A DNA stretch of 64,000 nucleotides from Bacteroidota bacterium (GCA_035362335.1 DAOSDL010000005.1:12708-76707), one strand, 5' to 3'; numbered from the stretch's first letter, positions 5,473 to 24,372 are shown. The notes: a model not told the origin generated them from the sequence alone. Made by a program: numbers and translations.

Positions 5473-5886
5473 TCAAATCGTGGCGATACATTTCAACTCG
5501 ATGGCGATGGGGGTGGGGAGCGAGAGCACCTCCACGGTGGTGCGGCAGGGCCGGTTGTCCCGGAAATACTCCGCGTACACGCGGTTGAAGGTGGCGAAAT
5601 CCTTTTTCATGTCGGTGAGGAACACCGTCACATCCACAAGATTTTCCCAGGCCGCGCCGGCGTCCTCCAGCACGGCGCGCACATTGCGGAACACGCTGTG
5701 GCATTGCCGCTCGAAATCGTAGCTGATGACGCGGCCGTCCGCATCCACTTCCACGCCGGGCACGTCGTCGACGCCGCGTTCGCGCGGACCGATGCCCGAG
5801 AGAAACAGCAGATTGCCCACGCGACGCGCGTGCGGGTACAGGCCCACGGGCTCGGGAGCGGAGGAGGAGTGGATTTCCTCGTTCAT
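5473..5886 (-). CDS. RidA/YjgF-family protein, likely 2-aminomuconate deaminase
   Basis: RidA fold motifs are present (FLSGIGP, TVFLTDM, VEVLSLP). The ATG at 5886 overlaps the upstream ALDH stop as ATGA (5883-5886). The track start at 5910 is a GTG that lies upstream of this. Confidence 0.72.
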   Translation of the reverse strand: MNEEIHSSSAPEPVGLYPHARRVGNLLFLSGIGPRERGVDDVPGVEVDADGRVISYDFERQCHSVFRNVRAVLEDAGAAWENLVDVTVFLTDMKKDFATFNRVYAEYFRDNRPCRTTVEVLSLPTPIAIELKCIATI

Positions 5887-7397
5887 GGCGATGTTCCCAG
5901 ATGGATGCACACGTTGGTGGGTTCGGTGAAAAAGCGCAGCGCTTCCCAGCCGCCTTCGCGTCCGATGCCGCTCTGCTTCACGCCGCCGAAGGGCGTACGC
6001 AAATCACGCAGCATCCAGCAATTCACCCACACGATGCCCGCCTCCAGCGCGCCGGCAACGCGATGGGCGCGGAGCAGATCGCGCGTCCACAGCGACGCGG
6101 CGAGTCCGTAGGGCGTGGAGTTGGCGATGGCCAGCGCCTCTTCCTCGCTGTCGAAGGGCAGCAGCGTGACCACGGGACCGAAGATCTCTTCCTGATTCGT
6201 GCGGCACTGCGCCGACAGGCCGTCGATCACGGCGGGCGTGAGGAAGGCGCCACCGGCACAGCGGCCATCGGGCACGATGCGCTCACCGCCGCACAGCACC
6301 GTGCCACCCTCCTCGCGGGCAAGCTGCACATAGCTCAGGACTTTGTGGAGATGTTCCTCCGAAACCAAGGCGCCGATGCGCGTGTCGGGGTCCAGGGGAT
6401 CGCCCACACGCAGAGCGCGCACCTCGTCCACGAAGCGCGCGCGGAAGCGGTCGTACAAGCCGCGTTGCACGAGGATGCGCGAACCGCAAAGGCAGATTTC
6501 GCCCTGATTCGAGAAGGCCGAGCGCACGATGGTGGGCAGGATATCCTCCAGATCCACATCGTCGAAGACGATGGTGGGATTCTTGCCTCCCAGCTCCAGC
6601 GAGAGCTTTTTGAACATCGGCGCCGCCGTCGCGGCGATGGAGGCGCCGGTGCGCGTGCCGCCGGTAAAGGAAATAGCCGGCACATCCGGATGCGCGCAGA
6701 GGGGAGCGCCGACGTCCGCGCCGCGTCCATGCACGATGTTGAGCACGCCGGCGGGCAATCCGGCCTCGATGCACAGCTCCGCGAAGCGACCGGCGGTGAG
6801 CGGCGTCAATTCCGAGGGCTTGGCCACAACGCAACTGCCGGCGGCCAGCGCCGGGGCGATTTTCCAGGTGAAGAGGTACAGCGGCAGATTCCATGGTGAA
6901 ATGCAGGCCGCCACGGGTATGGGACGACGCAGCGTGTAGTTCAACGCCAGCGTATCGCTATGATGCGCCTCGTCGTGGTCGTGGAGAATGGCGGTGGCAA
7001 AAAATCGCAGATTGCGGGCCGCGCGCGGAATGTCCACCGTGCGCGCGAGCGTGAGCGGCTTGCCGTTGTCGCGCGATTCCAGCGCGGCGAGTTCTTCCAG
7101 ATGTTCTTCGACCAGGGTGGCGAGGCGCAGCAACAGCCGCGAACGCTGTTCCGCCGGTGTCGTGGCCCAGTGCCGTGCCTGTTGCGCCGCGCGGACGGCG
7201 GCGTCCACATCGCGGGCGTCGGATGCGGCCGCCATGGCGATGGTCGCGCCCGTCGCCGGCTCCAGCACGGGCAGCCAGTCGCCGCCTTCCGGATCCACCA
7301 ATGCGCCGCCGATGTAATTGCGAATGTAGTGCATGTCGTGCATCATGCGGACGCTTTCGCGACTGCGTTGCGCGCCGCCTGCTTTCTTTTGTGTCAT
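5883..7397 (-). CDS. NAD-dependent aldehyde dehydrogenase, likely 2-aminomuconate-6-semialdehyde dehydrogenase
   Basis: 504 aa. ALDH motifs present: ELGGKNP, FSNQGEICLCGSRILV, FGGVKQSGIGREGG. It is the first gene of the kynurenine operon. The N-terminus is uncertain (ATG at 7397 with no RBS, or an internal MM at about 7346). Confidence 0.85.
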   Translation of the reverse strand: MTQKKAGGAQRSRESVRMMHDMHYIRNYIGGALVDPEGGDWLPVLEPATGATIAMAAASDARDVDAAVRAAQQARHWATTPAEQRSRLLLRLATLVEEHLEELAALESRDNGKPLTLARTVDIPRAARNLRFFATAILHDHDEAHHSDTLALNYTLRRPIPVAACISPWNLPLYLFTWKIAPALAAGSCVVAKPSELTPLTAGRFAELCIEAGLPAGVLNIVHGRGADVGAPLCAHPDVPAISFTGGTRTGASIAATAAPMFKKLSLELGGKNPTIVFDDVDLEDILPTIVRSAFSNQGEICLCGSRILVQRGLYDRFRARFVDEVRALRVGDPLDPDTRIGALVSEEHLHKVLSYVQLAREEGGTVLCGGERIVPDGRCAGGAFLTPAVIDGLSAQCRTNQEEIFGPVVTLLPFDSEEEALAIANSTPYGLAASLWTRDLLRAHRVAGALEAGIVWVNCWMLRDLRTPFGGVKQSGIGREGGWEALRFFTEPTNVCIHLGTSP

Positions 7398-7600
7398 GAG
7401 AAATGAACAATCTCAAAATACACGACATGGCGAAAATCGCAAGCGTACGGGACGGATGAGGTCGCGGCATGTACTTCGCGATGCTACGGACTCCGTGGAG
7501 ATTGAATTCAAGCTCAAAACCACAGTCATTCATGTTCCTTCGTCACACCCGGGAGAATGAAAATGGTGCGGAGATTGGATTATTCGGATTCGACACGGTT

Positions 7601-8071
7601 TTAAAACCACGGATTTCGCAGATTATCCACAGATTAGCACAGATTATTCGTGGAAGTCCACAAGGATCCGAGCAGTAGCCGCAAGGAAAGCAATCCAACA
7701 CCTGTTGTCGAAAGTGACGCGAAACACGCGTACATTGCCTGCTGGGACAGCGGTGGTGCGGGTTGACTCCCGGCTACTACCGTCAAACTTTACTCTTTAC
7801 TCTTCACTCTTTACTCATCACCGCGCAGAAGCGCATGATGCAGGCAGCGACACTATTTTCAGAGCAGATTGCACGGATTGCACACAGATTAGCATAGATT
7901 ATTCGTGGAAGTCGGCGAGGTGCCGGGCGAATCGTCGCAGATGAAGCGATCAGACGCCCGCTGACAGCAGTGATGCGAATCGGCGTTTATTGCCTGCGGT
8001 GCCGGCGGGAGTACGGGTTGGCTCCTGCGACTACCGTCAAACTTTACTCTTTACTCTTCACTCTTTACTCA
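7601..8071. repeat. Imperfect tandem duplication (2 x about 215-245 bp) in a 700-bp ORF-free, AT-richer spacer
   Basis: Copy 1 is about 7601-7817 and copy 2 about 7861-8071. They share a near-identical head (cagattagcaYagattattcgtggaagtc) and an identical 41-bp tail (ctaccgtcaaactttactctttactcttcactctttactca). The tail on the other strand reads as four GAGTRAA heptads. An exact TTATCCACA sits at 7623-7631. Confidence 0.6.
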
Positions 8072-8109
8072 ACGCATCACTGCGCAACCGACATGCCGAT
8101 GCGGCAGGG

Positions 8110-8562
8110 TCACGAAATGAAGCGGATGCTCAGCGGGTAGCGATAGGCCTCGCCGCGGTAGCTGCGCACGGACGCCACGATGACGAGGACGAGATTGGTG
8201 ATGCCGAGCGCGATCATCAGCAACAGCGAGAGACCGGCCGTGACCCCGAGTCCGAACACGCTCTCCTGCACGGCTGCCGACAGCATGCCGGTGACAAACA
8301 CCACCATCAGCACGATGAAGTAGATGGTCATGCTGATCTGGAAATTCATGGATTCCTTGCCCTGATCGTTCACCAGCGGCATCTCATCCTTTTTCATCAA
8401 CCACACGGTGAGCGGACCGAAAATGTGACCGAAGGGAACGATCACCGATGCGAATGTGGACAGGTGGCAGAGCATGCCCCAGGTGTGGATTTGATCTTCG
8501 CGCATGCGTGCCAACTGTGCGGCGACATCCTGCGTCGCTTGTTCCTGCGTGCCGTCGTTCAT
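8110..8562 (-). CDS. Small membrane protein (DUF4870-like)
   Basis: 150 aa with about 3-4 hydrophobic helices. ATG at 8562. Confidence 0.55.
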   Translation of the reverse strand: MNDGTQEQATQDVAAQLARMREDQIHTWGMLCHLSTFASVIVPFGHIFGPLTVWLMKKDEMPLVNDQGKESMNFQISMTIYFIVLMVVFVTGMLSAAVQESVFGLGVTAGLSLLLMIALGITNLVLVIVASVRSYRGEAYRYPLSIRFIS

Positions 8563-8635
8563 GTCGATCTCCTTGTGCTATGTGAATTGCTGCCGCTTCC
8601 GAGCGTCAGTGCGGTCGAAGCGCCCGCGTGCATCG

Positions 8636-9379
8636 TCACGTTGCCACAGCATCGCTGTTCGCCATCACGTCAATCCAGGAGCGCACAATGGCCTCGAGTC
8701 CGTCCCGCCGTGGCAGTCCATCCGCGTCATTCAATCGTGTGATGTCGCCGTTGCGCAGCAGCTGCCGCACGCCCTCGACATTGGCCCAATAGTAGAATCC
8801 CCACTGTTCGAGACTCCAACGCGGATCATAGCCATTGACTTCGTAGTCAACATAGGTGAGCGCGCCATTGTGTACAACCATGTTCGCCGGAAACCAGTCG
8901 AGATTGTAGCCCGCTTCGCGGCAACGCCGCGAAAGGGAGAGCAGTTGGAGGATGATGTCACGCTCCGGAAGGCCGTCGGCCACGAGCCGCAGGCCGTCGA
9001 TGCCATCCACCCATTCCTTGAGCAGCGTGCCCCGCTCGTGATCCACATGCAGCAGACGCGGAAGCGGCACGCCGATGCGGAGCAAGGTTGCGTAATCGCG
9101 CTGCTCGGCAATGGTTTTTGCTTCATGAAAGGTGTAATACGGGCAGGGTTCGTCGTGCATGACTTTGAGCACGAAGCGGGCGCCGCCTTCCTCCACCAGC
9201 CAGGAAAGCGCGGATTTGCCCTTACCGAGCGCGCGCAGGAGTGTGAGTCGATGCGGGCCGCAGGAGAGTGTCATGCCGGCCGCGCATGCATCGGCCACAT
9301 TGTATTCCGGAGAAGGGGAGGGTGTTTCCTGCGCTGCGTCGCTCATGGCATTCAGGGAATGTGTATGTTGGGTGTACAT
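8636..9379 (-). CDS. Small protein-kinase-like-fold protein (Kdo/RIO/LPS-kinase-like, atypical)
   Basis: 247 aa. Gly-rich loop LGKGKSA, then VLKV (lysine), LLKEWVDG hinge, a catalytic-loop-like DWFPANMVV (D...N) and a DFG-like YVDYE. An alternative start is MSDAAQ at about 9346. Confidence 0.5.
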   Translation of the reverse strand: MYTQHTHSLNAMSDAAQETPSPSPEYNVADACAAGMTLSCGPHRLTLLRALGKGKSALSWLVEEGGARFVLKVMHDEPCPYYTFHEAKTIAEQRDYATLLRIGVPLPRLLHVDHERGTLLKEWVDGIDGLRLVADGLPERDIILQLLSLSRRCREAGYNLDWFPANMVVHNGALTYVDYEVNGYDPRWSLEQWGFYYWANVEGVRQLLRNGDITRLNDADGLPRRDGLEAIVRSWIDVMANSDAVAT

Positions 9380-9634
9380 CGGGCGACCGGGAGAGGGCCG
9401 AGGATTGTTTCGCTTCGTGCTATCGGTGGCCCGAATCTGTCACCGGGCAGAGTACGGGGGGAGTTGGACATGGTTGCGCGAAGGATTTTCATAAACTCTT
9501 TGAAATGAAACATTGATGCGCTATATTTACTTGCTCTGAATGGCACAACCACATTCAGTGCGGCGTACATTGTCCCGATTCGGATTACACACGGAAGTTA
9601 CACAGAAAATACAGGTTCATCGGAGCACAGAAGC

Positions 9635-10240
9635 ATGAAGTACAACGGCCCCAAGGTCAAACTTTCCCGCCAGCTTGGTATCCCCCTCACCCCCAAGGCC
9701 TCGAAGATCATGGAGCGCAAGCCGCATCCGCCCGGTGCGCATGGCCTGTCGCGCAATCGTCGCGCCAAGGTGTCGGATTACAAGCGTCAGCTTCTCGAGA
9801 AGCAGCGTCTGCGCTGGCAGTACAACATCAGCGAGAAGCAGATGCGCAATTACTACGAGAAAGCTTCGCGCAAGACGGGAAACACGGCCGACAACCTCGC
9901 GACCTTGCTTGAGACGCGCCTCGATGCCGTGGTCTTCCGTGGCGGCCTCGCCCGCACGATTCATGCCGCACGCCAGTATGTGACGCATGGACACGTGGAA
10001 GTGAACGGCCAGCGCGTGAACATTCCGTCGTACCATGTGCGCGTGAACGATGTGATCAGCGTGCGCCAGAAGAGCCGCAAGATCGCGATGTTCAACGATG
10101 CGGTCAAGCTGTCGCGTCCGCCCGAGTATCTGGACACCAACAAGCCCGAGCTTTCCATCACCGTGCTTGCGCAGCCCGATCGCGAGCGCATCCCTGTGGT
10201 GTGCGAGTTCCCGCTGGTGATCGAGTACTACTCGCGCTGA
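9635..10240 (+). CDS. rpsD: 30S ribosomal protein S4
   Basis: 201 aa. Full-length match to the bacterial S4 pattern (MKYNGPKVKLSRQLG...; S4 RNA-binding domain RLDAVVFRGGLARTIHAARQYVTHGHVEVNG). Confidence 0.95.
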   Translation: MKYNGPKVKLSRQLGIPLTPKASKIMERKPHPPGAHGLSRNRRAKVSDYKRQLLEKQRLRWQYNISEKQMRNYYEKASRKTGNTADNLATLLETRLDAVVFRGGLARTIHAARQYVTHGHVEVNGQRVNIPSYHVRVNDVISVRQKSRKIAMFNDAVKLSRPPEYLDTNKPELSITVLAQPDRERIPVVCEFPLVIEYYSR

Positions 10241-17255: not shown

Positions 17256-17950
17256 TCGACAACTACGACGCGATGTTTCTCGACGCCGACGAAACGCTGT
17301 TCGACTACGCCGCCGCCGAGCGCGCGGCTTTCACGCTGTGCATGCGCAGCTTCGGTCTGCCCGAGGACGAGGCCAGCTACGCATTGTATCGCAAGCACAA
17401 CGCCGATGTGTGGAGCGAACTCGAGCAGGGGAGCATCGATCCCGAAACACTGAAGGTCGAGCGCTTTCGGCGTTTGCTCGACGCGCTCGGTCGCAACGGT
17501 GTGCCGCTGCGCGAACTCAGCGCCTGCTACCTCGACATGCTTTCGCGGCAGGCCCAGCTCCTGCCCGGAGCCGAGAATGCGGTGCACACGCTGGCGCGCC
17601 ATCGACCTCTGGCCCTGATCACCAATGGCCTGTCGCTGGTGCAGCGGCGACGCTTCGCTGCGACGCCGTGCATCGCATTGTTTCGCCACATCGTGATTTC
17701 GGAGGAGGTGGGCATAGCCAAGCCCGATCCGGCGATTTTCGCATCCGCGCTGCACGCATTGCGGGTTGCCCCCGAGCGCGTGCTGTACGTGGGCGATAGT
17801 GTGAGCAGCGACATGCGCGCGGCGGCCAATGCGGGCATGGACTTTTGCTGGATCAATGCCGCGAACGCCGCGTTGCCCGAGGACGGGCAGGCGCGCTTCA
17901 TTGTGCGTTCGATCACCGATCTGCCGGCATTGCTGGGAGTGGCGGAGTGA
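17252..17950 (+). CDS. HAD-superfamily hydrolase (YjjG-like)
   Basis: Real start MIDNYDAMFLDADETLFD (DxDxT motif) at 17252, overlapping the upstream stop as ATGA. Late motif YVGDSVSSDMRAA. Confidence 0.8.
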   Translation: MIDNYDAMFLDADETLFDYAAAERAAFTLCMRSFGLPEDEASYALYRKHNADVWSELEQGSIDPETLKVERFRRLLDALGRNGVPLRELSACYLDMLSRQAQLLPGAENAVHTLARHRPLALITNGLSLVQRRRFAATPCIALFRHIVISEEVGIAKPDPAIFASALHALRVAPERVLYVGDSVSSDMRAAANAGMDFCWINAANAALPEDGQARFIVRSITDLPALLGVAE

Positions 17951-18702
17951 AGGACAACACCATCGTGATCATCGGTGCCTCGCGGGGCATAGGCGCGGCT
18001 CTGGTCCGCGAGTATCTGGCGCGGGGTTGCCACGTGTTGGCGGCGTCGCGCGATCTCGCCGCGCTCGAAGCGCTGCGTGGGGCGGCGCCGGAAGGCATGC
18101 TGGATGTCGTGCAATGCGATGCCGCGCAGCCGGGGGCAGTGCGTTTTGTGCTGGAGCGCGCCGAGGCACGGTGGCCGCGTGTGGACCTGCTGCTGTACAA
18201 TGCCGGCGCGGATCATGCCGCGTGGATGGATACCTTCACCGCCGAGGACTTCCGAGCCCTGCTGGCGGTGAACACCTCGGGATTGGCCGAGGCGCTGGAA
18301 TGTTCCTACGCACTGTTTCGTCGACAGGGCGGGGGCGTGTTTGCGGGAGTAAGCAGTCTTGCCGATGCGCGGGGATACCCCGGATCGGCGTCGTACTGCG
18401 CCTCGAAGGCCGCCGCTTCCACGCTGCTCGAGGCGGCGCGTGCGGAATTGCGCCAAGGGCCGATACACGTGCTCACGGTGCGCCCCGGCTTCGTCCGCAC
18501 GGACATGACGGCCAAGAACACCTTTCCCATGCCGCTGCTCATGGAAGCCGCGGAGGCGGCACGCATCATCGTGCGCGGTATCGAACGAAGGAAGTCCGTC
18601 ATCACCTTTCCCTGGCCCATCGCATTCGCCACGCGCATCATCCGTGTCCTCCCCGATCGTCTGTTCGCGGCTCTGGCCTTGCGTGGTCGTCGACGCCGAT
18701 AA
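17947..18702 (+). CDS. Short-chain dehydrogenase/reductase
   Basis: GTG start at 17947 overlapping the HAD stop (GTGA). IVIIGASRGIGAAL (TGxxxGxG), NAG motif, and the YxxxK motif in SYCASKAA. Confidence 0.72.
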   Translation: MKDNTIVIIGASRGIGAALVREYLARGCHVLAASRDLAALEALRGAAPEGMLDVVQCDAAQPGAVRFVLERAEARWPRVDLLLYNAGADHAAWMDTFTAEDFRALLAVNTSGLAEALECSYALFRRQGGGVFAGVSSLADARGYPGSASYCASKAAASTLLEAARAELRQGPIHVLTVRPGFVRTDMTAKNTFPMPLLMEAAEAARIIVRGIERRKSVITFPWPIAFATRIIRVLPDRLFAALALRGRRRR

Positions 18703-18840
18703 CAGGTAGGGTGGAAGCGGGGTGGGAGTTGTCAGCGGACAGGTAGGTCCGTTCTTCTTGTGTTCGCCGATTTGCGTATCTTGCAACGATGTTCCGCCGG
18801 GGGCGGAGCGCCTTCCATCGACCACCTACGAGGTTTTACC

Positions 18841-20022
18841 ATGAAACGTACCATCGTCGCGATGCCCGGTGACGGAATCGGGAAAGTCGTGCTTCCGGAA
18901 GCTATTCGCGTGCTCGATGCCGCGGGATTCGAAGCTGAATACGTCAACGGAGACATCGGCTGGGATTTCTGGTGCAGCGAGGGAAATCCGCTGCCGCAGC
19001 GCACCATCGATTTGCTCGAGCAGCACAAGATCGGCCTCTTTGGCGCCATCACTTCCAAGCCCAAGAACAAGGCGGCCGAGGAACTGTCCCCGGAACTGCG
19101 CGACAAGGGCTTCGTGTACTACAGCCCCATCGTGACCATGCGCCAGCATTTCGATCTGGACATCTGCATTCGTCCCTGCCAGACCTTTCCCAACAATCCG
19201 CTGAACTTCGTCCGCAAAACCCTCGCCGGCGGCTTCGAGGAGCCCACGGTGGATGTGGTGATTTTCCGGCAGAACACCGAAGGGCTGTACTCGGGTGTGG
19301 AGTGGACCAATCCGCCGCAGCAGGTGCGCGACGCGCTCGCAACGCACCCGCGCTTCAAGCCGTACAGCAATGTCCCGGGAGAGGACCTCGCCGTGTCCAC
19401 GCGCATTTTCACGCGGCATTACTGCCGCCGCATCGTCACCGCCGCTTTCGAGCATGCGAAGAAGTACGGGTATAAATCCGTGACGGTGTGCGAGAAGCCC
19501 AACGTGATTCGCGAAACCTCGGGCATGATGGAGCAGGAAGCCGCTCTTGCCGCGAAAAATTATCCGGGTATTTCGCTTTGGTCCACTAACATCGATGCGC
19601 AGATGATGTGGTTGACGAAAAATCCCGAGGACTACGGTGTGATCGTTGCGGGCAACATGTTCGGCGACATCGTGTCCGATGGTTTCGCAGGGCTGGTGGG
19701 CGGATTGGGTTTCGCTTGCAGCGCCAATATCGGCAGCGAAGTGGCGGTGTTCGAGCCCACGCACGGCTCGGCGCCGAAATACGAAAAGCTCGATCCCTCC
19801 ATCGTGAACCCCATCGCCATGATTCTCAGCGCCTGCATGATGCTGGATCATATCGGTGAAACGGAGAAGGCGCAGCGCATACGCGCGGCGATTTCCGCGG
19901 TGATCAGCGAAGGCGCGGTGCGCAGCTATGACATGCTCAAACTCGCGGGTGGCCCGGATGTGTTCGCCAAAGGCGCGGCCACCACACAGCAGATGACCGA
20001 CGCGATCATCGCACGATTGTAA
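18841..20022 (+). CDS. Isocitrate/isopropylmalate dehydrogenase-family beta-decarboxylating dehydrogenase
   Basis: About 394 aa from MKRTIVAMPGDGIGKVV (the track ORF starts earlier at 18760). Family signature NMFGDIVSDGFAGLVGGLGFACSANIG. Confidence 0.85.
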   Translation: MKRTIVAMPGDGIGKVVLPEAIRVLDAAGFEAEYVNGDIGWDFWCSEGNPLPQRTIDLLEQHKIGLFGAITSKPKNKAAEELSPELRDKGFVYYSPIVTMRQHFDLDICIRPCQTFPNNPLNFVRKTLAGGFEEPTVDVVIFRQNTEGLYSGVEWTNPPQQVRDALATHPRFKPYSNVPGEDLAVSTRIFTRHYCRRIVTAAFEHAKKYGYKSVTVCEKPNVIRETSGMMEQEAALAAKNYPGISLWSTNIDAQMMWLTKNPEDYGVIVAGNMFGDIVSDGFAGLVGGLGFACSANIGSEVAVFEPTHGSAPKYEKLDPSIVNPIAMILSACMMLDHIGETEKAQRIRAAISAVISEGAVRSYDMLKLAGGPDVFAKGAATTQQMTDAIIARL

Positions 20023-20057
20023 TCGGACGCCGCCGCAACGGCCCGCATTGAACGACG

Positions 20058-20096
20058 CAGCCCCCTGTACCACGTTGGTCCAGGGGGCTGTGCATG
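20058..20096. terminator. Bidirectional hairpin between convergent genes
   Basis: Stems cagccccctg (20058-20067) and cagggggctg (20081-20090), with a 13-nt loop and T-rich flank. Confidence 0.5.
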
Positions 20097-20139: not shown

Positions 20140-20808
20140 TCAGCGCGAGCCCTCCGATGCGACGCGCGAGGGTTGCGCGGCGATGGAGCGGGCGTAGTCC
20201 GTGCCGTCGCCGAAGGAGTCGGCGAATTTGTCGACGAAGGGCGCGAGCACCGCACGAAGGCCCGGCATGTGCAGTCCCCCGATCATCACTCGCGTGGAGG
20301 GGAGCAAGGCGCGCAGATCGCGCAACAGCTGCTCGGTGACCTCCATCGATCCCACGGACTTCATTGTGAAGCACACGAGATCGGGTTGCAGCGCCGAAGC
20401 GCTTTGGAGAATGTCGTGCGTGGGCACGGAGTTGCCGTAGTGGTACACTTCCCATCCCTCGCGCTCGAGAATGTTGGCGAGAATGGTGGAAGCCACATCG
20501 TGATACTCGTTGGGTACGCAGCCGATGAGTGCCTTTTTGCCGTTGCGTGCGGCGGGCTTGCCGCGAAAGGCCTTGTAGGCGAGTACCTGCTTGACGATTT
20601 GCGTCGCGATATGCTCGCTGACAATGCTCTGGCTGTTCTCTTCCCAGCCGGTGCCGACCTGCGCGAGCGCGGGGATGAGAATGTCATTGTAGAGCAATTC
20701 ATCCGGTAATTGCTGCTGTTCCCATTCCTCCACGAGCGCGAAACATCGGCGGCGGTCGCCGGCGAGCAGCGGCTCGGTGAACATCGAGAGTTGATCGTTG
20801 CGTGTCAT
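20140..20808 (-). CDS. Stand-alone cobalamin (B12)-binding domain protein (B12-binding_2 helical cap plus Rossmann B12-binding domain)
   Basis: Real start MTRNDQ at 20808 (GGAGG ribosome-binding site); the track ORF 20140..21516 is over-extended. The motif reads GCVPNEYHDVAS, a variant of DxHxxG, followed by a GG loop (MIGGLH). No DNA-binding domain. Confidence 0.78.
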   Translation of the reverse strand: MTRNDQLSMFTEPLLAGDRRRCFALVEEWEQQQLPDELLYNDILIPALAQVGTGWEENSQSIVSEHIATQIVKQVLAYKAFRGKPAARNGKKALIGCVPNEYHDVASTILANILEREGWEVYHYGNSVPTHDILQSASALQPDLVCFTMKSVGSMEVTEQLLRDLRALLPSTRVMIGGLHMPGLRAVLAPFVDKFADSFGDGTDYARSIAAQPSRVASEGSR

Positions 20809-21257
20809 GCTTCCGCCTCCATGCTCAGACTGTGTTCGCGTTGCTGCAATTGCCGCAGCGCCTCGGCGATGGCGTCGCTGTTGTACTGCTCCATGAAGGC
20901 ATGGGTCGCGGTGCGCGTGGCCGCAAGCAGATTGGGAATGAAGGAGGTGGGGAAATGCCGATGCGTGAGAAAATTCCGCAGCCAATCGAGATACTCGATC
21001 AGCGCGGCGGGCAATTGGTACTTCATGGTGGCCTGGAGATTTTCCACAAAAATCTTGGCGCACTCCCTTGCAAGACGCGCGCGCTCGGGATCGGCGATGA
21101 GATCGCGAAACGCCTCGTTGCACTCCAGCCTGTCGATCACGGCGGAGAGAATTTTTTCCTTCTGCTTCTGAAACTCCTCGACATCCGGCGCCGCGATCGC
21201 GCCAAAGGAGATGGGCTCGGCTACTGCTTCCATAACGAATCGCCCGAATGTGAACAA
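20805..21257 (-). CDS. Hypothetical all-helical protein, translationally coupled to the downstream B12-binding protein
   Basis: 142-150 aa. TTG at 21257 or ATG at 21233 (MEAVAEP...). Its stop overlaps the B12-protein start by 4 nt (20805-20808). No recognisable domain. Confidence 0.45.
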   Translation of the reverse strand: MFTFGRFVMEAVAEPISFGAIAAPDVEEFQKQKEKILSAVIDRLECNEAFRDLIADPERARLARECAKIFVENLQATMKYQLPAALIEYLDWLRNFLTHRHFPTSFIPNLLAATRTATHAFMEQYNSDAIAEALRQLQQREHSLSMEAEA

Positions 21258-21601: not shown

Positions 21602-22822
21602 ATGAACAGCAGAGCCGAAGCCGGGAGGGGTGGCAAGAACGTGCGCTCGGATTGCCTCGTTGCCATCGAACTTCTCGATAGCGGCGGCATCACCATTGAT
21701 CTGCGCAGCAAGGTGGAGACCCTGTACGGGCGCTCCATCCGCGCTATGGTCGAGGAGATGCTCGCTTTTTATACCATCACCGATGCGCGCATCGTCGTCG
21801 AGGACAGCGGTGCGTTGCCCTATGTGCTGGCCGCGCGCATCGAGGCGGCCATCCGTCGACTGCGTCCCGAGGAGACGCGCGAGTTCCTTCTTCCCACGCG
21901 ACCCGGCATCGCATTGAGCACAGCGCGCGACCGTTTGCGCCGCTCGCGCCTCTATCTGCCGGGCAACGATCCGAAGCTGGCCATCAACGCGGGCATTCAC
22001 GAAGCGGATGCTATCATCCTCGATCTCGAAGACTCCGTCGCGCCCGCCGAAAAGGATGCCGCACGCCTGCTCGTGCGCAACACCTTGCGCGAGGTGGATT
22101 TCATGGGCGCCGAACGCATGCTGCGCGTCAATCAGGGGGCGCCGGGTATGGAGGATCTGCGCATGCTGATTCCCCAGGGACCCAATCTCGTGCTCATTCC
22201 CAAAGTGGAGGAAGCCGCGCAGGTGCGCGACGTGCATGCGCTCATCGAGGAATTGCGCCAGCGGCACGGCATTGCCCACGACATTCACCTGATGCCGATC
22301 ATTGAAAGCGCGCGAGGTGCGCTGTTCGCCTACGACATCGCGACGGCGGCTCCGAGCGTGGTTGCTCTCGCCATCGGTCTCGAGGATTACACGGCGGACA
22401 TCGGGGCCGAGCGCACGCTGGAAGGCCGCGAGAGTTTCTGGATGCGTGGCGCGGTGCTCAATGCCGCGCGTGCTGCCGGCGTGCAGGCCATCGACACGGT
22501 GTTTTCGGATGTCAATGATATGGACGGCCTGTACGCGAGTGTGCGCGAAGCCGCTTCGCTGGGCTTCGACGGCAAGGGCTGCATCCATCCCCGGCAGATC
22601 GCGGTGGTGCATCGTGGTTTCGCACCCACCGAGGCCGATATGGAAAAAGCCAAGCGCATCGTGCTGGCTTTCGACGATGCCACGCGGCGCGGTCTCGGCG
22701 TGGTGGCGCTGGGATCGAAAATGATCGACCCCCCTGTGGTCAAGCGCGCGCTGCGCACCATCGATCTGGCGGTGCGCTCGGGCGTGCTGTCGCAAACATG
22801 GAAAGAGGAGGTGCAGGCATGA
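21602..22822 (+). CDS. Citrate lyase gamma (acyl carrier, CitD) - beta (citryl-CoA lyase, CitE) fusion protein
   Basis: The N-terminal about 95 aa resemble CitD, including the prosthetic-group Ser region (RSDCLVAIELLDSGGI). The remainder is HpcH/HpaI-fold CitE (YLPGNDPKLAINAGIHEADAIILDLEDSVAP...). Confidence 0.78.
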   Translation: MNSRAEAGRGGKNVRSDCLVAIELLDSGGITIDLRSKVETLYGRSIRAMVEEMLAFYTITDARIVVEDSGALPYVLAARIEAAIRRLRPEETREFLLPTRPGIALSTARDRLRRSRLYLPGNDPKLAINAGIHEADAIILDLEDSVAPAEKDAARLLVRNTLREVDFMGAERMLRVNQGAPGMEDLRMLIPQGPNLVLIPKVEEAAQVRDVHALIEELRQRHGIAHDIHLMPIIESARGALFAYDIATAAPSVVALAIGLEDYTADIGAERTLEGRESFWMRGAVLNAARAAGVQAIDTVFSDVNDMDGLYASVREAASLGFDGKGCIHPRQIAVVHRGFAPTEADMEKAKRIVLAFDDATRRGLGVVALGSKMIDPPVVKRALRTIDLAVRSGVLSQTWKEEVQA

Positions 22823-24372
22823 GCGCGGAACGCGTCATCAATGCGGCGGGACGCGAAGTTCTCACCGAGATCAACGGTGTGCCCGCCGTTCCCTATCAGG
22901 GCGTCGGCGCATACAAACCCTCTGGCCGCAAGGCCGCACCGCCGGTGTCGTCCTGTGCGGACTATCCGTCCGACGGCAACAAGGTGCTCCCGGGTTTGCG
23001 CGAAGCCCTGATCAACGCCGGACTGCGCGATGGCATGACCATTTCCAGTCATCATCATTTCCGCAACGGCGACCTGGTGGCGAATCAGGTGTTCGACATC
23101 GCGGCGGAACTGGGCGTGAAGGATTTGCGCTGGTTTCCTTCGGCCGCCTTCCCCTGCCACGAACCGCTGATCAAGCATCTCGAAAGCGGCGTGATCCATC
23201 ACATCGAGGGCTCGATGAATGGGCCGCTGGGCGATTACGCAAGCTCGGGCAGGATGCGCGGGCTGGGCGTACTGCGTTCGCACGGCGGCCGCTACCAGGC
23301 CATTCAGGATGGAGAAGTCCATATCGACATCGCGGTCATCGCCGCACCCACCTCCGATCCCTTCGGCAACTGCAATGGCGTGAACGGTCCCTCGGCCTGC
23401 GGAGGGTTGGGCTTCGCGCTGGCGGATTCGCAGTATGCGGACAAGGTGATTGTGGTCACGGACAACCTTGTCCCCTTCCCCTGTGTACCCTGGCAGTTGC
23501 ACGGCAATCATGTGGACAGCGTGGTGGTGCTGGACAAGATCGGCGAGCCCGAAAAAATCGTGAGTGGCACAACGGCCATCACGAAAAGTCCCGACCGTCT
23601 GCTCATCGCCGAACTCACCGCGCGTTTCTGCGATGCCGCCGGCATCGTGCGCGACGGCTTCTCCTTTCAGGCGGGTGCGGGTGGCACCGCCCTGTCCTTC
23701 GCCATCTTCCTGCGCGACATGATGCGCGAACGCCGCATCAAGGCGCGCTTCGTGCGCGGTGGAAGTACGCGCTACCTGGTCGACATGCTGGAGGAAGGGC
23801 TGACGGACTACATCCTCGACGGTCAGACCTTCGACCTCGCGGGCGTGCAATCCATGCGCGACAATCCGCGCCATATTCACAGCAATCCCTTCGTCAGCTA
23901 CAACTACCATGGCAAGGGCAATGTGGCCTCCATGCTCGATGTGGTGGTGTTGGGTGCGACGGAAGTGGATGTGCAATTCAACGCGAATGTGGTGTCGCAC
24001 AGCGATGGACGCTTGCTGCATGGCATCGGCGGATGGCAGAACTGTCTGTTCTCCAAATGCACCATTCTGCCCATCCCCAGCTTCCGCGACCGCATACCGG
24101 TGATTGTGGACCAGGTCACCACGCTGTGCGGTCCCGGAGAACTGATCGATGTGATCGTGACCGAGCGCGGCATCGCCATCAATCCCTTGCGTCAGGATCT
24201 CATCGACGCAACGCGGAACTCCGGGCTGCCCATTCGTCCGATCGAGGCCATCAAGGATGAAGTGGAATCGATGTGCGGCGGAGCGCCGGACAAGCCGCGC
24301 TTCATCGACAACTACATCGCCGCCATCAAATGGGTGGACGGTACGGTCATCGACATGGTGAAGCAGGTGTAG
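22819..24372 (+). CDS. citF: Citrate lyase alpha subunit (citrate CoA-transferase)
   Basis: About 517 aa from MSAERVINAAGREV. GAGGAGG ribosome-binding site, then an ATG at 22819 that overlaps the upstream stop as ATGA. CitF-family length and motifs. Confidence 0.88.
   Translation: MSAERVINAAGREVLTEINGVPAVPYQGVGAYKPSGRKAAPPVSSCADYPSDGNKVLPGLREALINAGLRDGMTISSHHHFRNGDLVANQVFDIAAELGVKDLRWFPSAAFPCHEPLIKHLESGVIHHIEGSMNGPLGDYASSGRMRGLGVLRSHGGRYQAIQDGEVHIDIAVIAAPTSDPFGNCNGVNGPSACGGLGFALADSQYADKVIVVTDNLVPFPCVPWQLHGNHVDSVVVLDKIGEPEKIVSGTTAITKSPDRLLIAELTARFCDAAGIVRDGFSFQAGAGGTALSFAIFLRDMMRERRIKARFVRGGSTRYLVDMLEEGLTDYILDGQTFDLAGVQSMRDNPRHIHSNPFVSYNYHGKGNVASMLDVVVLGATEVDVQFNANVVSHSDGRLLHGIGGWQNCLFSKCTILPIPSFRDRIPVIVDQVTTLCGPGELIDVIVTERGIAINPLRQDLIDATRNSGLPIRPIEAIKDEVESMCGGAPDKPRFIDNYIAAIKWVDGTVIDMVKQV

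Follow-up and report, generated by a model that had tools for sequence, protein, structure and literature searches.

The citDE and citF genes

In this study, we report the analysis of a citrate-lyase-like gene pair, citDE and citF, carried on a 64,000-nucleotide stretch of DNA from a Bacteroidota bacterium (GCA_035362335.1, DAOSDL010000005.1:12708-76707). This whole stretch is referred to as the window, and coordinates are counted from its first letter. The citDE gene (21602..22822, + strand) was defined from the list of open reading frames (ORFs), Pfam and NCBIfam matches, a structural model and family alignments. Its product of 406 amino acids (aa) comprises a CitD-like acyl carrier protein (ACP) domain (aa 1-87), a linker (aa 88-113), a CitE TIM-barrel lyase domain (aa 114-392) and a short C-terminal tail with an invariant Trp400. 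It is followed by citF (22819..24372, + strand; 517 aa), encoding the alpha subunit, the putative acyl-ACP:tricarboxylate acyl-transferase. Comparison with 160 related loci revealed a conserved gene module in which the fused CitDE, together with CitF, provides the lyase, and for which homocitrate is considered below as a possible substrate.

An earlier interpretation of the locus, made without database searches (the sequence-only reading), had described citDE as an in-frame fusion of the gamma and beta subunits of citrate lyase. This was borne out by Pfam, which placed PF06857 (ACP/CitD) at aa 16-86 (E = 8.6e-19) and PF03328 (HpcH_HpaI/CitE) at aa 114-330 (E = 3e-54) of the one ORF. Among the NCBIfam models, the highest score was obtained with citE TIGR01588 (276 bits), which is below the equivalog cutoff of 443, while the citD models gave 66 bits against a cutoff of 65 (PRK13253) and 58.5 bits against 63.5 (TIGR01608). 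The PF06857 and PRK13253 matches also uphold the CitD-like character that had been claimed for the N-terminus. Instead of the separate gamma subunit of ~98 aa with an E-S-[S/G]-D motif, the domain is present yet fused. An assembly or frameshift artefact was ruled out, because thousands of homologues share the ACP+CitE architecture, and identical genes were called on the public contigs bearing the identical protein.

An AlphaFold2 model of CitDE, built with 65 homologues, was confident (predicted local distance difference test score, 92.8; predicted template modelling score, 0.90). It contained a small alpha/beta ACP domain (strands 4-8, 17-24, 30-36 and 62-70; helices 39-56 and 73-87), the ordered linker 88-113 and the TIM barrel. 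The best structural matches of the lyase domain were CLYBL, malyl-CoA lyase and citramalyl-CoA lyase, with template modelling scores of about 0.85-0.9 on the target. Foldseek with the whole model returned only CitE-like lyases, and no solved CitD or MdcC structure was found by sequence. At the C-terminus (aa 400-406, 22799-22819), the invariant Trp400 lies in a W-[K/R/E]-E context. Canonical CitD ends in P/N-W-[E/K]-[E/D] and canonical CitE has no such tail; it seems that the motif ending CitD was relocated to the C-terminus created by the fusion, where it may serve for docking.

The initiation codon of citF (ATG, 22819-22821) overlaps the termination codon of citDE (TGA, 22820-22822) in an ATGA sequence, as had been noted earlier, and GGAGG is located 8 nt upstream; this overlap predicts translational coupling of citF to citDE. 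CitF matched PF04223 (E = 2e-138) and the solved citrate-lyase alpha chains PDB 2hj0 and 1xr4 (E = 1e-113 to 1e-119), and scored 500.1 bits with TIGR01584, marginally under the equivalog cutoff of 501.45. The alpha subunit of the canonical complex is therefore represented at this locus, while the CitE part stays below equivalog level.

Relationship to canonical citrate lyases

More than 8000 database proteins matched CitDE, and the best 120 of these all had the ACP+CitE architecture, with identities of 54-100%. In the one-genome-per-species and metagenome collections, the fused family was found in Ignavibacteria, Melioribacteraceae, Bacteroidales, Cloacimonadota, KSB1, Krumholzibacteriota, Eisenbacteria, Gemmatimonadota, Anaerolineales, WOR-3 and others. 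Canonical proteins from Escherichia coli, Streptococcus and Enterococcus are 52-67% (CitE) and 58-60% (CitF) identical with one another, and CitDE and CitF of the window and of Melioribacter are 59-68% identical with each other, whereas between the fused family and the canonical enzymes the values are 39-45% for CitE and 38-42% for CitF. Such comparisons place the fused family in a clade apart from the canonical citrate lyases, as an outgroup to a canonical clade that itself spans Proteobacteria and Firmicutes.

The canonical citrate (pro-3S)-lyase, encoded by citCDEFXG in E. coli and Klebsiella pneumoniae and by the cit operons of lactic acid bacteria, resembles the system described here in its alpha, beta and gamma parts and in the gene order D-E-F. 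By homology, the same two-step chemistry would be expected, an acyl exchange followed by a Claisen cleavage, with no consumption of ATP. The differences are the fusion of gamma to beta, an R-S-D motif in the carrier instead of E-S-[S/G]-D, the lack of citC, citX and citG in all 161 loci (the window and the 160 related ones), and the partner genes. The partners encode a dehydrogenase resembling homoisocitrate dehydrogenase (HICDH), Hac and PrpD proteins, whereas canonical operons carry oxaloacetate decarboxylase and citrate transporters.

The fusion itself has been known since 2012 from Ignavibacterium album, in which IALB_1147, a CitE-CitD fusion, adjoins the CitF gene IALB_1146; these proteins belong to the same family, at about 60% identity, with the same fusion and gene pair (Liu et al. 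2012, PMC3362086). In the sections of that report concerned with these genes, the enzyme is treated as a normal ATP-independent citrate lyase serving citrate fermentation or an unconventional reverse tricarboxylic acid (TCA) cycle, and those sections make no mention of accessory genes, the Ser motif or operon partners (PMC3362086). What seems to be new here is the altered attachment motif, the family-wide lack of linked citC, citX and citG, the separate clade, and the HICDH-like/Hac/PrpD context with its links to lysine. In the literature searched, no discussion of the lack of citXG in Ignavibacteria was found.

The main alternative to the homocitrate reading is an ordinary citrate lyase, splitting citrate into acetate and oxaloacetate, in which the fusion is harmless, the neighbours are an aconitase/isocitrate dehydrogenase-type set linking citrate and 2-oxoglutarate, and citG, citX and citC lie elsewhere in the genome. 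Such an enzyme would serve to ferment citrate or in an unconventional reductive branch of the TCA cycle, roles that have been proposed for I. album (PMC3362086). We consider this explanation rather doubtful. It is favoured by the near-cutoff score of CitF and its close matches to solved citrate-lyase alpha chains, by citE being the top model for the lyase domain, by citD models at or near cutoff, and by the published interpretation itself, and it is opposed by the position of the family outside the canonical clade. If the enzyme is simply a citrate lyase, the fusion is one known since 2012 from I. album, and what is left is a question of annotation, namely where the cofactor genes are.

Absence of linked citC, citX and citG

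Genes for CitC, CitX and CitG were searched for by tblastn with eight queries from E. coli, Enterococcus faecium and Streptococcus equi (E<=0.05). No match was obtained in the 64 kb window (21.6 kb upstream and 39.6 kb downstream of citDE-citF), so that the earlier statement that none lies within 15 kb extends to the whole window. There was likewise no match in the 160 related loci, half of them from genomes and half from metagenomes (80 each), which were searched over roughly 2 Mb in total, with flanks reaching at most 10 kb depending on the contig. As a positive control, the E. coli queries detected CitX, CitG and CitC of Firmicutes at E values of 1e-14 to 1e-54, and in a control of sensitivity a 7.3 Gb plasmid database searched with E. 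coli CitX yielded CitX proteins of 29-36% identity. Lack of linked citC, citX and citG is thus a trait of the whole fused family, across the window and the 160 loci.

Among the canonical operons fetched, those of E. coli and E. faecium keep all three helper genes with citDEF and that of S. equi keeps citC and citX; the absence of all three from 161/161 loci counts against an ordinary citrate lyase. In favour of the latter, citX is unlinked in K. pneumoniae.

The carrier loop and its attachment site

The attachment loop was compared in MAFFT and hidden Markov model alignments, with the invariant Gly and Asp as anchors. The canonical CitD loop reads G-[T/S]-L-E-S14-[S/G]-D16 and that of the fusion G11-x-x-V-R15-S16-D17. 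The column of canonical Ser14, the prosthetic-group attachment residue of E. coli and K. pneumoniae CitD, is occupied in the fusion by Arg15, and the invariant Ser16 falls in the column of canonical position 15; a register of +1 for the fusion Ser also follows from the NCBIfam coordinates. The Ser of the R-S-D-C sequence, which the sequence-only reading had presented as the prosthetic-group Ser, is accordingly one residue off. A longer loop as the cause of the shift was rejected, as the spacing between the Gly and Asp anchors is identical in canonical and fused proteins.

The R15-S16-D17-C18 motif (codons 21644..21655, + strand; Ser16 at 21647-21649) is family-specific and lies at the loop/strand boundary of the ACP domain. 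It was invariant in 65/65 aligned homologues, and among 150 representatives (50% clustering) it took the form R/K-S-D-[C/L/V/A]. On these alignments, Ser16 would be the sole candidate attachment residue, and the strict conservation of R-S-D argues that the carrier loop is still functional; the simplest explanation for an essentially invariant R/K-S-D at the attachment loop would be that the Ser is modified. A direct role of Cys18 as the acyl-carrying thiol was rejected, since C, L, V, A, M or I was present at that position in the 150 representatives. Because the position varies and the AlphaFold2 model places it inside strand 17-24, Cys18 is regarded as a hydrophobic strand residue.

Citramalate lyase of Clostridium tetanomorphum and malonate decarboxylase (MdcC) are further multi-subunit enzymes with a CitD/MdcC-type carrier bearing phosphoribosyl-dephospho-CoA, and they depend on CitG/MdcB and CitX/MdcG homologues. 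PF06857 covers CitD and MdcC carriers alike. Their carrier sequence is S-G-D, with the Ser two residues before the Asp, whereas the fused family has its Ser one residue before the Asp and no such linked genes.

The changed register and the lack of linked helpers leave two options, which appear to us about evenly balanced: a repositioned modified Ser with other installers, or loss of the covalent cofactor. Under the first, the carrier thiol would be provided by a prosthetic group on Ser16, installed by unlinked or non-homologous enzymes; under the second, priming would be by free acetyl-CoA. The altered motif, at a locus with no known holo-ACP genes, makes activation of the carrier directly testable.

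Isolated subunits of canonical citrate lyase work with free acetyl-CoA. An enzyme that had lost its prosthetic group might do the same, CitF acting as a tricarboxylate:acetyl-CoA CoA-transferase and CitE as an acyl-CoA lyase with catalytic free acetyl-CoA, while the CitD-like domain is kept as a structural or CoA-binding module; this scheme could be combined with either the citrate or the homocitrate hypothesis. Consistent with it are the absence of citC, citX and citG from all 161 loci, the Arg in place of the canonical attachment Ser (which also counts against an ordinary citrate lyase), the structural neighbours of the lyase domain, every one a lyase of free CoA esters (such as CLYBL, malyl-CoA lyase and citramalyl-CoA lyase), and an acetyl-CoA synthetase gene that recurs as a neighbour in 12 loci, mostly of related genomes. 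Nevertheless, we judge the scheme unlikely: the ACP domain is kept in every member with a confident fold, R/K-S-D is essentially invariant exactly at the attachment loop (an invariant Ser that would equally suit an ordinary citrate lyase), and the search in which citG and citX were absent covered the window and the flanks of the loci.

A conserved gene module

Clustering of all ORFs of the related loci identified a recurrent operon encoding an Iso_dh-superfamily dehydrogenase (IsoDH), a small HD protein, a fused HacAB hydro-lyase, an MmgE/PrpD protein, CitDE and CitF. CitF followed citDE in 144/160 loci, the rest being mostly contig ends. HacAB, a fusion of large and small subunits of the aconitase superfamily, was present in 66 of the 160, the PrpD-like dehydratase in 58, IsoDH linked to citDE in 49 and the HD protein in 44. 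The order IsoDH-HD-Hac-PrpD-CitDE-CitF recurs on a 1.1 Mb metagenome contig (L170).

HacAB clears the threshold of the 'homoaconitate hydratase family' model (473 bits against 385.7), and its small-subunit specificity loop (a YLRT-type motif) gave no clear assignment. In the loci lacking PrpD (Bacteroidales, Cloacimonadota), two distinct fused HacAB paralogues stand in tandem; isomerisation in the module would be by two enzymes, either PrpD and HacAB or the tandem paralogues. The latter are about 602 and 592 aa long in L061, L067, L075, L076 and L048, and their small-subunit loops differ (R-Y-L-T-I-T-D and G-N-L-T-Y-K-V), which suggests one enzyme per half-reaction. In the fungal pathway, two enzymes are required between homocitrate and homoisocitrate (PMC3556520), a requirement with which the two-enzyme isomerisation of the module fits by analogy.

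Together, a lyase acting on a tertiary-alcohol tricarboxylate, an isomerase pair and a beta-decarboxylating dehydrogenase would form a complete module, by which a 2-oxoacid and acetate are interconverted with CO2 and the next-longer 2-oxoacid. Two pairs come into question: oxaloacetate/2-oxoglutarate, with citrate as the intermediate, and 2-oxoglutarate/2-oxoadipate, with homocitrate. The dehydrogenase bears on the choice between them. In the window, IsoDH (18841..20022, + strand; 393 aa; Pfam Iso_dh), a member of the superfamily of isocitrate dehydrogenase (IDH), HICDH and 3-isopropylmalate dehydrogenase (IPMDH), has the loop Y-Y-S-P-I-V-T-M-R, and Y-[Y/F]-S-P-I-V-x-[L/M]-R occurs in nearly all family members. 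The corresponding loops are S113-L-N115-V-A-L-R in E. coli IDH, S-V-N-V-T-L-R in a bacterial NAD-dependent IDH (6lky) and G-A-I-R85-Y-L-R in Thermus HICDH. S-P-I-V is common to the window IsoDH and the strict homoisocitrate dehydrogenase of Schizosaccharomyces pombe (3ty3; Y-S-S-P-I-V-A-L-R). IsoDH thus has the loop of a strict HICDH, and it lacks both Asn115 of IDH, which binds the gamma-carboxylate of isocitrate, and Arg85 of Thermus HICDH. Absence of the isocitrate-binding Asn and presence of the fungal HICDH loop both tell against an ordinary citrate lyase. The NCBIfam models that scored highest with IsoDH were those of the AksF homoisocitrate dehydrogenases, although below their cutoffs.

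Homocitrate as a possible substrate

From the gene context, we suggest that the substrate may be homocitrate, cleaved to acetate and 2-oxoglutarate, and that the enzyme closes a reversed alpha-aminoadipate route; we rate the chance of this as appreciable, if somewhat short of even. In such a scheme, CitF would exchange the acetyl group on the carrier thiol for the tricarboxylate substrate, with release of acetate, and the CitE domain would split the bound acyl group into acetyl-thioester and 2-oxoacid without ATP, both steps being deduced from homology. Lysine would be converted to saccharopine, aminoadipate semialdehyde, 2-aminoadipate and then 2-oxoadipate. Reductive carboxylation of 2-oxoadipate would give homoisocitrate, from which homoaconitate and then homocitrate would be formed, and homocitrate would be cleaved to acetate and 2-oxoglutarate by the lyase, in place of the irreversible homocitrate synthase. 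Overall, the first half of the alpha-aminoadipate pathway would be run backwards without a need for oxygen.

That half (homocitrate synthase, homoaconitase with aconitase, and Lys12) has in common with the module an S-P-I-V HICDH-like enzyme, homoaconitase-family hydro-lyases and isomerisation by two enzymes. It differs in that a citrate-lyase-type enzyme here takes the place of homocitrate synthase and in that the linked lysine genes are catabolic. In a Bacteroidales operon (L076), a gene for L-piperidine-6-carboxylate (P6C), or aminoadipate-semialdehyde, dehydrogenase (801 bits against a cutoff of 730) follows HacAB and precedes a gene resembling lysine-ketoglutarate reductase (LKR). Homologues of this dehydrogenase, with 57-58% identity, are found in L073 and L018, one after PrpD on an Anaerolineales chromosome and one adjoining citF in a metagenome-assembled genome (MAG). 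In four Cloacimonadota-type loci, genes for saccharopine dehydrogenase and an AlaDh/LKR-type enzyme lie directly upstream of citDE. As P6C dehydrogenase and the saccharopine pathway are catabolic, the reverse direction is implied, and saccharopine-pathway genes embedded in the module count against an ordinary citrate lyase. Further neighbours encode peptidases of families M1, M20 and S9 and CstA transporters, which suit amino-acid catabolism.

For the fused family as a whole, we propose more tentatively that it is a homocitrate lyase, catalysing an ATP- and O2-independent last step that is widespread in anaerobic and facultative bacteria of the Fibrobacteres-Chlorobi-Bacteroidetes (FCB) group and others, with a carrier that may work without CitG, CitX and CitC. 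No description of a homocitrate lyase or of a reversed alpha-aminoadipate route was found in the literature searched. If the context is read correctly, the lyase would represent a new enzyme specificity and the route a new anaerobic degradation of lysine or 2-oxoadipate to central metabolites. In bacteria with the saccharopine pathway but without the oxygen-dependent HglS route or glutaryl-CoA enzymes, this route would supply what is missing beyond 2-aminoadipate. Annotation as 'citrate lyase', 'isocitrate dehydrogenase' or 'isopropylmalate dehydrogenase' would also be corrected in thousands of cases, which have been used to infer that carbon is fixed through the reverse TCA cycle in Ignavibacteria and related MAGs.

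Several observations weigh against homocitrate as the substrate. Genes of lysine catabolism are in or beside the module in few loci (8/160, from at least four lineages), and none of them is in the window, where HacAB, PrpD and HD genes were also not found; only IsoDH and a short-chain dehydrogenase (SDR) are near citDE-citF in the 64 kb. CitF is only 1.4 bits under the curated cutoff for citrate-lyase alpha subunits, and there is no homocitrate-lyase model for comparison. A malic enzyme in three loci and a CitT-like DASS transporter in one would suit citrate and oxaloacetate, and thereby an ordinary citrate lyase. In natural (R)-homocitrate, the acetyl-derived arm is opposite to the position cut by citrate (pro-3S)-lyase, so that the enzyme would need altered stereochemistry or would have to act on the (S)-isomer.

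The dehydrogenase adds further points of the same kind. IsoDH missed all equivalog cutoffs, the best NCBIfam models being AksF2 (254 bits, cutoff 540) and AksF (250 bits, cutoff 500). Its overall similarity to PDB entries (NAD-IDH, 3e-50; Thermus HICDH, 9e-49; fungal HICDH, 1.6e-36) does not discriminate between IDH and HICDH, and the JGI annotations of the family are divided between isocitrate dehydrogenase and 3-isopropylmalate dehydrogenase. The best 120 IsoDH homologues are 76-90% identical across phyla, which could reflect a central role or a recent spread and would suit a central enzyme working with an ordinary citrate lyase. Homologues named among them are from Bacteroidota, Ignavibacteria, Phycisphaerae, Myxococcota, KSB1 and one Thermoplasmatota MAG.

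The sequence-only reading had offered two options, either accessory genes located elsewhere or a fused enzyme that works with free CoA-thioesters on a different substrate, such as citramalyl-CoA, itaconyl-CoA or malyl-CoA. The general idea of a differently working enzyme is sustained by the family-wide lack of linked citC, citX and citG, the separate clade, the CitE score under its cutoff and the neighbours, which point to a homologue of citrate. The substrates named are not: the RipC model NF038242 gave 165 bits against 375 and the malyl-CoA lyase model NF041626 79 bits against 500, and CitF and the ACP domain are retained. Stand-alone CitE-like acyl-CoA lyases (human CLYBL, Mycobacterium tuberculosis CitE, Ccl/RipC and malyl-CoA lyases) have the TIM-barrel fold in common with CitDE, whereas their substrates are free CoA esters, and they lack the CitF partner and the ACP that the window enzyme has.

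A related proposal, in which the substrate is citramalate, malate, an itaconate-derived ester or 2-methylcitrate and the neighbours serve a citramalate/2-oxobutyrate or methylcitrate route, is very improbable. The PrpD family is best known for the dehydration of 2-methylcitrate, LeuCD- and LeuB-type enzymes also handle citramalate and 3-methylmalate, and the lyase domain resembles CLYBL and the citramalyl-CoA lyases in fold. Against these points, the scores with RipC/Ccl and malyl-CoA lyase models are far below both their cutoffs and the citE score of 276 bits, and the IsoDH loop is unlike E-x-G-L-L, the IPMDH loop of the Thermus enzyme. Moreover, PrpB, PrpC, glutamate mutase and methylaspartase were absent from the 160 loci, and the proposal would leave the lysine genes unexplained.

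Neighbouring genes and additional features

Directly upstream of IsoDH in the window is the SDR gene (17947..18702, + strand), identified by Pfam and present on the identical public contig; it adjoins the module in a few loci. Between IsoDH and citDE, a divergent pair of genes encodes a B12-binding protein of 222 aa (20140-20808, - strand; B12-binding_2 and B12-binding domains) and a protein of 142 aa without a Pfam match (20805-21233, - strand). Conservation of the pair is confined to the closest relatives (L005, L007 and L009); the pair may regulate the flanking genes in response to cobalamin or light, and it probably lies outside the enzyme system. An Rfam scan of the window gave no match, and a promoter and terminator scan found nothing exceeding background. 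An aldehyde dehydrogenase gene of the window (5883-7397) was considered as a P6C dehydrogenase and rejected, its product being HpaE- or betaine-aldehyde-like; its homologue in L048 is a delta-1-pyrroline-5-carboxylate (P5C) dehydrogenase.

No LysW or Lys2-type genes were seen. A neighbour of 1356 aa in L008, considered as a Lys2-type aminoadipate reductase, was found to be an Eco57I-type methylase, and the other large neighbours are unrelated (Pol III, UvrD, histidine kinases and secreted proteins). In L073, an ORF of 881 aa (17439-20084) combines a P6C-dehydrogenase-like Aldedh domain with a fragment of FtsH (AAA and Peptidase_M41) and is probably a frameshift or misassembly. On the L170 contig, a gene divergent from the module (6134-9760, - strand) encodes a 1208-aa 2-oxoacid dehydrogenase E1 with a fused E2 catalytic domain, OdhA/Kgd-like, which from its domain content could act on 2-oxoglutarate or 2-oxoadipate.

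The HD/HDIG protein (177-190 aa) always lies between IsoDH and HacAB (L017, 4354-4887, and 43 other loci), and in the one copy inspected, that of L017, the usual H-D doublet reads I-D. In Ignavibacteria and Melioribacter, the operon is interrupted by '23S rRNA intervening sequence protein'/bAvd-like genes (17 copies in 13 loci, including L011, L012, L015, L017, L030, L033, L034, L039, L041, L045, L055 and L078), and SIR2_2 and RhuM genes also interrupt it in some loci (L013, L030).

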